From an uncultured bacterium (GTDB taxonomy: Bacteria; Chlamydiota; Chlamydiia; Chlamydiales; FEN-1388), in contig CAZEQY010000008.1 of NCBI GenBank assembly GCA_964514655.1, positions 2,631-66,630 on the forward strand: a DNA stretch of 64,000 nucleotides, given 5' to 3'. Every line of letters begins with the position of its first letter. Position 1 is the first letter of the stretch. The position numbers and the translations under genes were made by a program. This document shows, piece by piece, positions 62,816 through 64,000 of this stretch. The notes under the pieces were generated by a model. The model was not told where the DNA came from and made no database searches. It was given only the letters and a program-made list of their open reading frames with translations.

Positions 62816-62969
62816 ATATCCTGCCGATCCTGGCAATCCTGTTTGTTTTCTTGACCACATCCTATTTCAGCTTCCTAGTTATGTAGGGCGAAGCTTCGCC
62901 CATATATAACGTTTAGGCTGTAAAGGCATGTGCACTAATGAACAGGATCACCAGGATCGGCTACGCCGG
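62816..62969. repeat. palindromic element, family C, copy 2 (right terminus interrupted by a group II intron)
   Basis: atatcctgccgatcctggcaatcctgtttgttttcttgaccacat ... ggcgaagcttcgcc ... gaacaggatcaccaggatcggctacgccgg aligns with copy 1 (42355-42503). Similarity stops at 62969, where intron sequence begins. Confidence 0.78.
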
Positions 62970-63010
62970 ATGTGGTAGAGAGGCCGGTCGCCCAGGCCTC
63001 CCCCCAGTTA

Positions 63011-63043
63011 GAACCCGCCGTGCACAATTAATGCAACGGGTTC
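63011..63043 (-). ncRNA. group II intron domain V-like hairpin
   Basis: The minus strand reads GAACCCGUUGCAUUAAUUGUGCACGGCGGGUUC. It folds as an 8-bp basal stem, a 2-nt bulge (CG) on the 3' strand, a 5-bp distal stem and a 5-nt loop, close to the canonical 34-nt DV. The usual AGC triad reads AAC. Confidence 0.45.
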
Positions 63044-63063
63044 AAGATAAAATCCTTCACCTA

Positions 63064-64000
63064 TTACCTACAGAACATGCGATGCCCGATCTTCACTTCT
63101 GGTATTGGATTCGCTTCTATAAACAGCTTAAACTTATCCACTGTGAAGCTCTTGCGTTGACTGCGCCTGTTCAGCCATTTGAACATAAGTCGCTTTGCCT
63201 CTCGGATATACTGGTTCACCCTATCCGCATTGTGTGAGACGCCATAGTACTGTATATGTCCTCTCACCTTTGCTATAAACAGTTTCCAGAGCTCCTTAAG
63301 TGGCATTACATTCCTATTTTGCTTGATCCATTCTTTAACCTTGCTTAGCTTTGCTTTCAGTGTCTTGGTCCTCGTCTGCAGTTTGGGTATGATCCTCCCT
63401 GTCTTCGAACGGCCAAGATAGAATGTGAAGCCTAGAAAGTCAAAGGTCTCTTGTTTGATGCCTTGTCTCGCTAACTTTTTATCAAAGGCAACGAGTTTAG
63501 TCTTTTCTTCATTTATTTGAAGTTTGTACTTATCAAGACGTTTGGCAAGAGTTTGTCTGATCCTCTTTGCGTCTTCTGCGTACTGACAACATATCACCGC
63601 GTCATCCGCATAGCGGAACAGACTGACCGTGCCTTTACAGGCCGGTTTCACCATCTTTTCGACCCATAGATCTATTGCGTAGTGGGCGAAGACATTCGCA
63701 AGAATAGGGCTGCAGATGCTGCCCTGCGGAACTCCTTCTTCACTCATTTGCAGTTCGCCTTCGGTTAATATCCCGGCTTTGAACATCCGATTTATGTACC
63801 TCATAAATCTTGGGTCCTTTATTTTCTGCTTCAGGATATCTTCCAGCAGCTTATGATCTATTGTCCCAAAGAAGTTCTTTAGATCAATGTCAATGACTGT
63901 CTGGATTTCATTCATGTAGAGGTGATTCAGTAGTGCCTGGATGGCATCGTGGCAGCTTTTTCCTGGTCTGAACCCGAATGAGCAGTCCAAGAAAAGCGGC
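63064..64000 (-). CDS. group II intron reverse transcriptase/maturase (N-terminus beyond window; no HNH endonuclease domain)
   Basis: RT motifs FGFRPGKSCHDAI, DIDLKNFFGTIDH, GVPQGSICSPILANV and FRYADDAVICC (YADD), then a thumb/X maturase region (RGHIQYYGVSHN). The protein ends soon after without a CxxC/HNH. The frame is open to position 64000. Confidence 0.9.
   Translation of the reverse strand, partial: PLFLDCSFGFRPGKSCHDAIQALLNHLYMNEIQTVIDIDLKNFFGTIDHKLLEDILKQKIKDPRFMRYINRMFKAGILTEGELQMSEEGVPQGSICSPILANVFAHYAIDLWVEKMVKPACKGTVSLFRYADDAVICCQYAEDAKRIRQTLAKRLDKYKLQINEEKTKLVAFDKKLARQGIKQETFDFLGFTFYLGRSKTGRIIPKLQTRTKTLKAKLSKVKEWIKQNRNVMPLKELWKLFIAKVRGHIQYYGVSHNADRVNQYIREAKRLMFKWLNRRSQRKSFTVDKFKLFIEANPIPEVKIGHRMFCR

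Follow-up and report, generated by a model that had tools for sequence, protein, structure and literature searches.

The guanine of the catalytic triad in domain V (DV) of group II introns is regarded as invariant, and its replacement by adenine is the textbook inactivation of the ribozyme. Among the introns whose reverse transcriptase (RT)/maturase has no endonuclease (En) domain, those of classes IIE and IIF, such as Cl.be.I2 and Pe.th.I2, have a ribozyme of 450-700 nt, a 5-nt DV loop instead of the GNRA tetraloop and an alpha-prime motif at the tip of a DId3 stem-loop (Nagy et al. 2013, PMC3753933). Class IIC introns target terminator or attC stem-loops, just downstream of which they insert, and have a CGC triad, a ribozyme of about 400 nt, an IBS1 of no more than 3-4 nt and no EBS2; RmInt1 from Sinorhizobium meliloti, an En-minus intron of class D, homes to ISRm2011-2. 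Here we describe a group II intron with the triad AAC, located at the end of a 64,000-nt stretch of DNA (the window: contig CAZEQY010000008.1, positions 2,631 to 66,630, or G000:C8:2631-66630 in our numbering) from an uncultured chlamydial bacterium. The host belongs to the environmental chlamydiae, its EF-P sharing 79-84% identity with proteins whose sources are given as Chlamydiales, Parachlamydia, Neochlamydia and Rubidus. The contig runs on past the window end, and the window contains the catalytic 3' end (DV, domain VI (DVI) and the 3' splice site) of a complete and structurally intact bacterial intron. We regard the identity and the mapping of the element as certain, and consider it rather probable that AAC is a fixed, and probably compensated, variant of an intron lineage that is still functional.

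The full intron is 1,947 nt long and lies on the minus strand, from window-equivalent position 64916 (5' GUGCG) to 62970 (3' ...CCACAU). It overshoots the window end by 916 nt, and its 3' 1,031 nt are inside the window (62970..64000), as delimited by the continuation of the contig, by uninterrupted copies of the repeat in which it sits and by a match to Rfam family RF02005. The flanks were joined across the intron and searched against the whole genome for uninterrupted copies, which read ...CCTATCCTG^CCGGCGTAGCC... (^ marks the junction) and are found on genome contigs C7, C35, C57, C80, C5 and C47 (for example C7:82658-82822, 93% over 165 nt). These copies set both intron ends, and the empty site is not regenerated if either boundary is shifted by one base. 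At the 3' splice junction (62969..62970, minus strand) the final intron base is U 62970 and the first base of the 3' exon is C 62969, while the intron start, GTGCG, read on the contig beyond the window, abuts ...CCTATCCTG. Both termini, 5' GUGCG and 3' ...ACAU, fit group II ends (GUGYG and AY), and from the mapped junctions the ligated exons would read ...CCTATCCTG followed directly by CCGGCGTAG.... A preliminary description of this DNA, made from the letters of the window, had proposed that the intron interrupts the terminus of a palindromic repeat, that the 5' exon ends in ...ATCCTG and the 3' exon starts with CCGGC, and that the 5' end would be found beyond position 64000. All of this agrees with the extended sequence: the uninterrupted copies run across the junction and read ATCCTG^CCGGCG, and the contig has the GUGCG start right after ...ATCCTG, at 64916.

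The ribozyme comprises 624 nt (530 + 94). Domain IV carries an open reading frame (ORF) for an RT/maturase of 440 aa (full span 64386-63064, minus strand; 63064..64000 in the window), annotated with Pfam and NCBIfam, which is intact, retains the YADD motif and has its stop at 63064. It matches RVT_1 (3.2e-39) and GIIM in Pfam, and the equivalog TIGR04416 for group II RT/maturases in NCBIfam with 332.8 bits (cut-off 300). A domain search of the 440 aa found no En/HNH domain, as had been expected from the translation, and the protein ends 26 aa past the GIIM match. RF02005 (group-II-D1D4-6) matches domains I to III (DI-DIII) at window-equivalent ~64585-64883, just beyond the window, with 125 bits (E = 3e-36; gathering score 49). 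Together with the TIGR04416 match, this upholds the identification of the element as a group II intron.

In contrast, the Rfam model for DV and DVI, RF00029 (Intron_gpII), gave no match at E ≤ 10 in the present copy. RF00029 was also silent on five relatives, four of them with the usual AGC triad, and the miss is therefore a property of the lineage and not peculiar to the present copy. Because RF00029 is uninformative for the lineage, we built a DV/DVI covariance model from 19 relatives, with the present copy and its sister copy, L022, left out. The model has a single match in the 64 kb, which extends end to end over 62970-63043 on the minus strand (86.7 bits, E = 8e-18) and places DV, DVI with its bulged A, and the CCACAU end at the coordinates that had been assigned by eye. 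DV (63011..63043, minus strand, 33 nt, GAACCCGUUGCAUUAAUUGUGCACGGCGGGUUC) has a lower helix of 9 bp and an upper helix of 4 bp, separated by an AC bulge on the 3' strand, and is capped by the 5-nt loop UAAUU, which is closed by U•G and conserved throughout the lineage; as in other group II introns, it is a hairpin of ~34 nt with a 2-nt bulge. DVI, delimited by RNAalifold, pair counts and the covariance-model match (62973..63006, minus strand), follows after 4 nt and is a GCGA-capped stem with a bulged branch-point A at 62976, which is 7 nt from the intron 3' end; the stem is followed by CAU, ending at 62970. Among 20 distinct sequences, 97.9% of cells are paired as in the canonical DV/DVI structure, and compensatory double changes are present in 13 of the 26 pairs (0 of 500 shuffles as high; slid registers 42-53%). 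These compensatory changes are split between DVI (9 of 13 pairs) and DV (4 of 13 pairs), and RNAalifold agrees with the structure.

The triad, at 63042-63040, reads AAC, confirming the preliminary description, and the variant A 63041 is paired with U 63013, so that the AGC or CGC at DV positions 2-4 and the G•U wobble usual for group II introns are absent. AGC (GAGCC...) is found in 18 of the 19 relatives compared, the remaining one, a 3' fragment, having ACC (GACCC...), which makes AAC the derived state. Opposite the triad G, which is itself constant, most relatives have U and five have A. These five are L008, L019, L032, L033 and L038 (GAGCC...GGAUC), with G·A in place of the G•U wobble. A literature search for a natural AAC triad found nothing relevant.

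A search over 5.8 billion proteins identified the closest relative of the RT at 93% identity and the next at 78%. The closest relative is that of L022, located on a contig from Logan run SRR30003468, a different sample. L022 is a full-length intron with 93.5% nucleotide identity over 1,946 nt and an intact 440-aa ORF. It has AAC and an A12-U20 pair in DV like the present copy, and DV/DVI are identical over 74 nt; AAC is shared by the two copies and is probably not a recent lesion. As its 5' exon, L022 has the terminus of a second sub-family of repeats, ACCGTTTTGCATTTATCCTGCCCGATCCTG (GCATTTATCCTGCCCGATCCTG), and its 3' exon is unrelated to that of the present copy (L022-type target: CCTGCCCGATCCTG^TTGATCC). 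In the genome studied here the L022-type terminus is unoccupied (C23:123-152 at 100% identity; also on C15, C8 and C17) and continues with CCAGCTTTAGCGGGATCCTG, not with the 3' exon of L022. Since L022 and the present copy sit at different sites, at least one mobility event lies between the two AAC copies. Hitch-hiking on transposition of the repeat, which is similar to a miniature inverted-repeat transposable element (MITE), was considered as the source of the two sites and discarded, since the two copies have different immediate flanks at both ends.

The comparison of the two copies also reveals selection. The ratio of nonsynonymous to synonymous divergence (dN/dS) of the RT is 0.12, with dS = 0.27. 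When changes are polarised by three outgroups, synonymous and nonsynonymous changes stand at 13:9 on the branch of the present copy and at 12:10 on the L022 branch, where ~1:3 is expected under neutrality. The 530-nt 5' part of the ribozyme differs by 5.5%, against 23% of synonymous sites, and its changes in local helices include two that are double-compensatory and five that preserve pairing. The 74 nt of DV/DVI are unchanged, although the synonymous rate predicts about 17-20 changes.

The triad is not the only conserved position that differs in the AAC clade. Columns were counted as conserved if the same base is present in ≥90% of 20 relatives; there are 187 such columns in the 5' ribozyme, and ~6 of them are changed in both AAC copies. 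At one of these, intron position 445, 19 of the 20 relatives have G (GUCAGAU, before the DIII helix GGAUC), while both AAC copies have U (GUCAUAU). By homology to IIB and IIC structures, the AGA directly 5' of DIII would be the J2/3 motif of IIB introns, which therefore reads AGA in the relatives and AUA in the AAC copies. Following our reading of the Toor 2008 and Marcia 2012 structures, we take the changed base to be the J2/3 G that forms a triple with the triad G. The chance that one of ~6 changes strikes the position-445 column is ~3%. In the IIB intron P.li.LSUI2, A420 is the gamma nucleotide and A422 contacts the triad A551 (PMC6224600), J2/3 of the Oceanobacillus iheyensis intron is A287-G288-C289 (PMC3669008), and the triad layers in solved structures are U•A-U, G•G-U and A•C-G (PMC7583470). 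By analogy, a canonical U•A-U major-groove triple would replace G•G•U as the central triplex layer in the AAC clade. The clade has kept the gamma A, the next A, the terminal U that pairs with gamma and the AC bulge. The co-occurrence of AAC with the J2/3 change in these sequences is suggestive of compensation. An identical chemical change, from the triad G•U to A-U, is present in the O. iheyensis mutant G359A (PDB 4DS6) and in D5 G3A of aI5-gamma. Those are, however, engineered single mutants that are nearly inactive and keep the J2/3 G, whereas the change described here is natural, evolutionarily maintained and paired with G-to-U in J2/3.

A hairpin of DI contains an insert of ~67 nt (window-equivalent ~64757-64824; intron 93-160, readable in L001/L026) in the present copy and L022 only, and in none of the 20 relatives. 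The insert is a degenerate duplicate of the segment comprising DIVa and the ORF start (intron 512-582), with the ATG changed to AGG; the alignment of the two has a local score of 49, compared with 22.8 ± 4.0 for shuffles (maximum 41 in 500). From its sequence, it may offer the intron protein an additional place to bind.

Recognition of the insertion site can be followed from the pairing between exon-binding sites (EBS) and intron-binding sites (IBS). EBS1, CAGGAU (intron 262-267), is perfectly complementary over 6 bp to IBS1, AUCCUG, the last six exon bases. The EBS1 loop covaries with unrelated 5' exons in 11 relatives (EBS1/IBS1 pairs CGAAGCG/CGCUUCG, CAACAA/UUGUUG, CUUCCA/UGGAAG and CGCAUU/AAUGCG among them), which shows that the 5' junctions are placed correctly and that targets are recognised through base pairing. 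EBS2, UAGGUG (intron 232-237), probably pairs with IBS2, UGCCUA, at -12 to -7, and lies at the EBS2 position of relative L010. Two other candidates for EBS2 were rejected: AGGUAGG with CCUGCCU, because in relatives the aligned stretch is one strand of a conserved helix, and UGCAGG, which is invariant among relatives with different exons. Across the junction the target of the present copy reads CCTGCCTATCCTG^CCGGCGTAGCC. The three closest introns, namely the present copy, L022 and L055, all sit after an ATCCTG hexamer in repeat termini, and the lineage is thus specialised on such repeats, as RmInt1 is on ISRm2011-2. As L055 is the nearest outgroup with AGC (78% aa identity), this target specificity is older than AAC.

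We favour the view that the AAC intron has remained a functional mobile element. Excised intron RNA with its RT/maturase would have reverse-spliced into DNA at a site picked by pairing of EBS1 CAGGAU with IBS1 AUCCUG, and probably of EBS2 with IBS2 directly upstream. The site follows a reiterated ATCCTG hexamer within a terminal inverted repeat of the MITE-like element, and the hairpin of the repeat would be incidental to recognition. G-to-A would have been fixed in the common ancestor of the present copy and L022, after which the lineage moved at least once and stayed under purifying selection on the RT, DI-DIII and DV/DVI. The likely reason why the change was tolerated would be the correlated change of J2/3 from AGA to AUA. 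From this mobility and the continued purifying selection we infer that splicing and reverse splicing by the AAC ribozyme persist, probably aided by its protein. A more specific version of this view is a maintained re-wiring of the core, in which triad G to A and J2/3 partner G to U yield a U•A-U triple, splicing and retromobility are kept, and the clade-specific duplicate of the DIVa segment in DI may support the altered core through additional maturase contacts; this we propose tentatively, as an attractive possibility that falls a little short of being probable.

Several observations weigh against a functional AAC intron, and most of them favour the alternative that the intron is dead or severely impaired by the triad G-to-A and persists as an immobile insertion in non-coding repeat DNA. 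The aI5-gamma G3A mutation, described by Boulanger and colleagues in 1995, is said to block splicing in vivo, with some in vitro activity kept and the defect partly suppressible. In the O. iheyensis intron G359A (G•U to A-U), the standard active-site knock-out, stops binding of the catalytic metals and almost abolishes activity (PMC3669008), and individual copies of RmInt1 are known to have been inactivated by single point mutations (PMC4496777). The assembly contains one copy of the intron only, while eight repeat-borne TATCCTG^CCGGC targets remain unoccupied; between -13 and +24, five of the eight match the occupied site exactly. Other AAC-type DVs in metagenome contigs of the Joint Genome Institute (JGI) amount to three matches, two of them distinct (L023/L024 and L025), which are decayed fragments without RT and without a DI-DIV match, and the scan of these contigs for AAC-type DVs returned no further intact member of the clade. 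In a pattern scan of 401 genomes of the phylum, the AAC-type DV and the J2/3-U motif were matched in the present genome only. In addition, the covariation of triad and J2/3 is a single evolutionary event in two sequences, and both the J2/3 assignment and the base-to-base pairing with the triad rest on homology to IIB and IIC structures.

However, a dead intron is expected to evolve neutrally, which is at odds with a dN/dS of 0.12, with constraint on both terminal branches, with DV/DVI that are identical across dS = 0.27, and with a ribozyme whose divergence is four to five times below that of synonymous sites. The presence of AAC at two different sites implies at least one mobility event after the mutation, and the ORF, 5' GUGCG, EBS1, AC bulge, branch A and gamma A are all intact. 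We thus regard an inactive intron as unlikely, albeit as the most serious competitor of a functional one. The catalytic impairment suspected in the preliminary description was reasonable in view of G359A, but the comparative data, with AAC shared, selection maintained and J2/3 changed, weigh against it.

Purifying selection despite a dead-type triad could also be explained if the RT and its RNA had been domesticated for a role unrelated to splicing or mobility, with selection acting without ribozyme catalysis; the extra DIVa-like segment could then bind protein. We find this very improbable, because the two copies occupy different repeat sites with no conserved host locus, the splice-site and exon-binding elements are all kept with matching flanks, and the element is present in 1 of 401 sampled genomes of the phylum. 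Slightly less credible still is a parallel origin, in which AAC arose twice by G-to-A from a master lineage with AGC, inactivating each copy and leaving a selection signal that is older. G-to-A is a transition, and the wider family (L023/L024, L025) has acquired AAC on more than one occasion. Nevertheless, the estimated probability of the same change occurring twice is ~4e-4 at ~3% divergence per branch, and the J2/3 G-to-U, the DI insert and the DV A12-U20 pair, which are absent from all 20 relatives, would have to be parallel too; moreover, no AGC copy closer than 78% aa identity was found among the 5.8 billion proteins.

Judged by the described features, the intron resembles the IIB-like, En-minus classes E and F, which we treat together (Nagy et al. 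2013, PMC3753933). It shares with them an RT/maturase without endonuclease domain, a ribozyme whose 624 nt fall within 450-700 nt, the 5-nt DV loop, a IIB-like layout with EBS1 and an apparent EBS2 in DId, a 5' end that begins with GUGCG and a branch A located 7 nt before the 3' end. It differs from them by AAC for AGC, by AUA for AGA in J2/3 and by the ~67-nt DIVa-like insert in the DI hairpin. With RmInt1 it has in common a natural site inside another repeated mobile element, recognition through EBS/IBS pairing, and target copies that are partly unoccupied. In contrast to RmInt1, the present intron belongs to another ORF class, has one copy per genome and has as its target the terminal inverted repeat, with reiterated hexamers, of a MITE-like element that is non-coding, rather than the gene of an insertion sequence (IS).

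The preliminary description had drawn an analogy to introns that target stem-loops (class IIC), and this analogy did not survive. The absence of an endonuclease domain from the RT, the insertion in a hairpin-forming repeat directly 5' of a mini-hairpin, and the GsI-IIC RT as the nominal best PDB match of the RT are compatible with recognition of a DNA stem-loop by a IIC-like intron, but we dismiss it as hardly conceivable, because the ribozyme has 624 nt instead of ~410 nt, EBS1-IBS1 is long (6-7 nt) and covaries, the triad of the relatives is AGC and not CGC, the 5-nt DV loop is typical of IIE/IIF, LtrA (IIA) scores almost as high as the GsI-IIC RT, the three closest copies share a target sequence (ATCCTG) and not a target shape, and the other relatives insert in unrelated contexts, mostly without a hairpin. 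The sole relative in which a hairpin target was noticed is L009 (metagenome-assembled genome of Parachlamydiales; 1480-1520, 3423-3445), where the intron is flanked by the inverted pair ACCCAGGG ... ACCCTGGG and the empty site would form a hairpin with the insertion point in its loop. Another relative, 76% identical (L057:163-546 and 1-600; L058), adjoins a gene of the 23S_rRNA_IVP family (PF05635), and its 5' exon is a short tandem repeat of the GGGCAAGGGCA type.

The interrupted element is a MITE-like palindrome with 48-nt terminal inverted repeats around a core that has a palindrome of its own. The consensus of the terminal inverted repeat, CCATCATCCTGCCTATCCTGCCGGCGTAGCCGATCCTGGTGATCCTG, contains reiterated ATCCTG hexamers and the mini-hairpin CGGC-GTA-GCCG. 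In the window, the 3'-exon part of the interrupted left terminal inverted repeat (62943..62969, minus strand, CCGGCGTAGCCGATCCTGGTGATCCTG) includes this mini-hairpin and is followed by the core and the right terminal inverted repeat (62812..62942, minus strand); the central palindrome, GGGCGAAGCTTCGCCC, spans 62901-62886. About 18 nt of the consensus are missing from the right terminal inverted repeat (62841-62812). A second copy of the repeat family in the window (42354..42503, no strand assigned) is uninterrupted and has the empty target ...TCTATCCTG^CCGGC.... Copies of the repeat are often located at contig ends, which indicates that the repeat family breaks the assembly. The second sub-family of repeat termini has the same architecture of hexamer, mini-hairpin and hexamer (GCATTTATCCTGCCCGATCCTG-CCAGCTTTAGCGGGATCCTG), and its copies in the present genome (C23:123-190, C15:58340-58430, C15:54950-55001, C8:100-157 and C17:56040-56095) are all empty.

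The palindromic repeat is nested in a larger element, which has conserved 65-nt segments of two types (GGGCTGTCAAAAACTTCAGAATTTCACAG... and GGGCTGTCAAAAATTGGCACATTTC...) outside the 48-nt inverted repeats and ends in inverted GGGCTGTCAAAAA termini. Such segments lie at 62749-62813 in the window and at window-equivalent ~64940-65010, with further copies on C7, C35, C57, C15, C80, C5 and C47. A gene on the same strand (61650-62675, minus strand) lies immediately downstream of the repeat with the intron and encodes a protein of ~340-381 aa, whose only match, to DUF413, is below threshold; transcripts through the repeat and the intron would enter this gene.

The intron thus represents a group II intron lineage of environmental chlamydiae that has specialised on the ends of MITE-like repeats, with their reiterated hexamers, and in which the wobble partner of the triad G is naturally variable and the G itself is not. 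If the present copy is inactive, it is an ordinary decaying intron with an unusually informative lesion. If AAC is indeed under purifying selection and matched by a change in the third strand, it would constitute a ready-made covariation experiment, which asks whether catalysis needs the functional groups of G•G•U or just an isosteric triple that positions the backbone phosphates.

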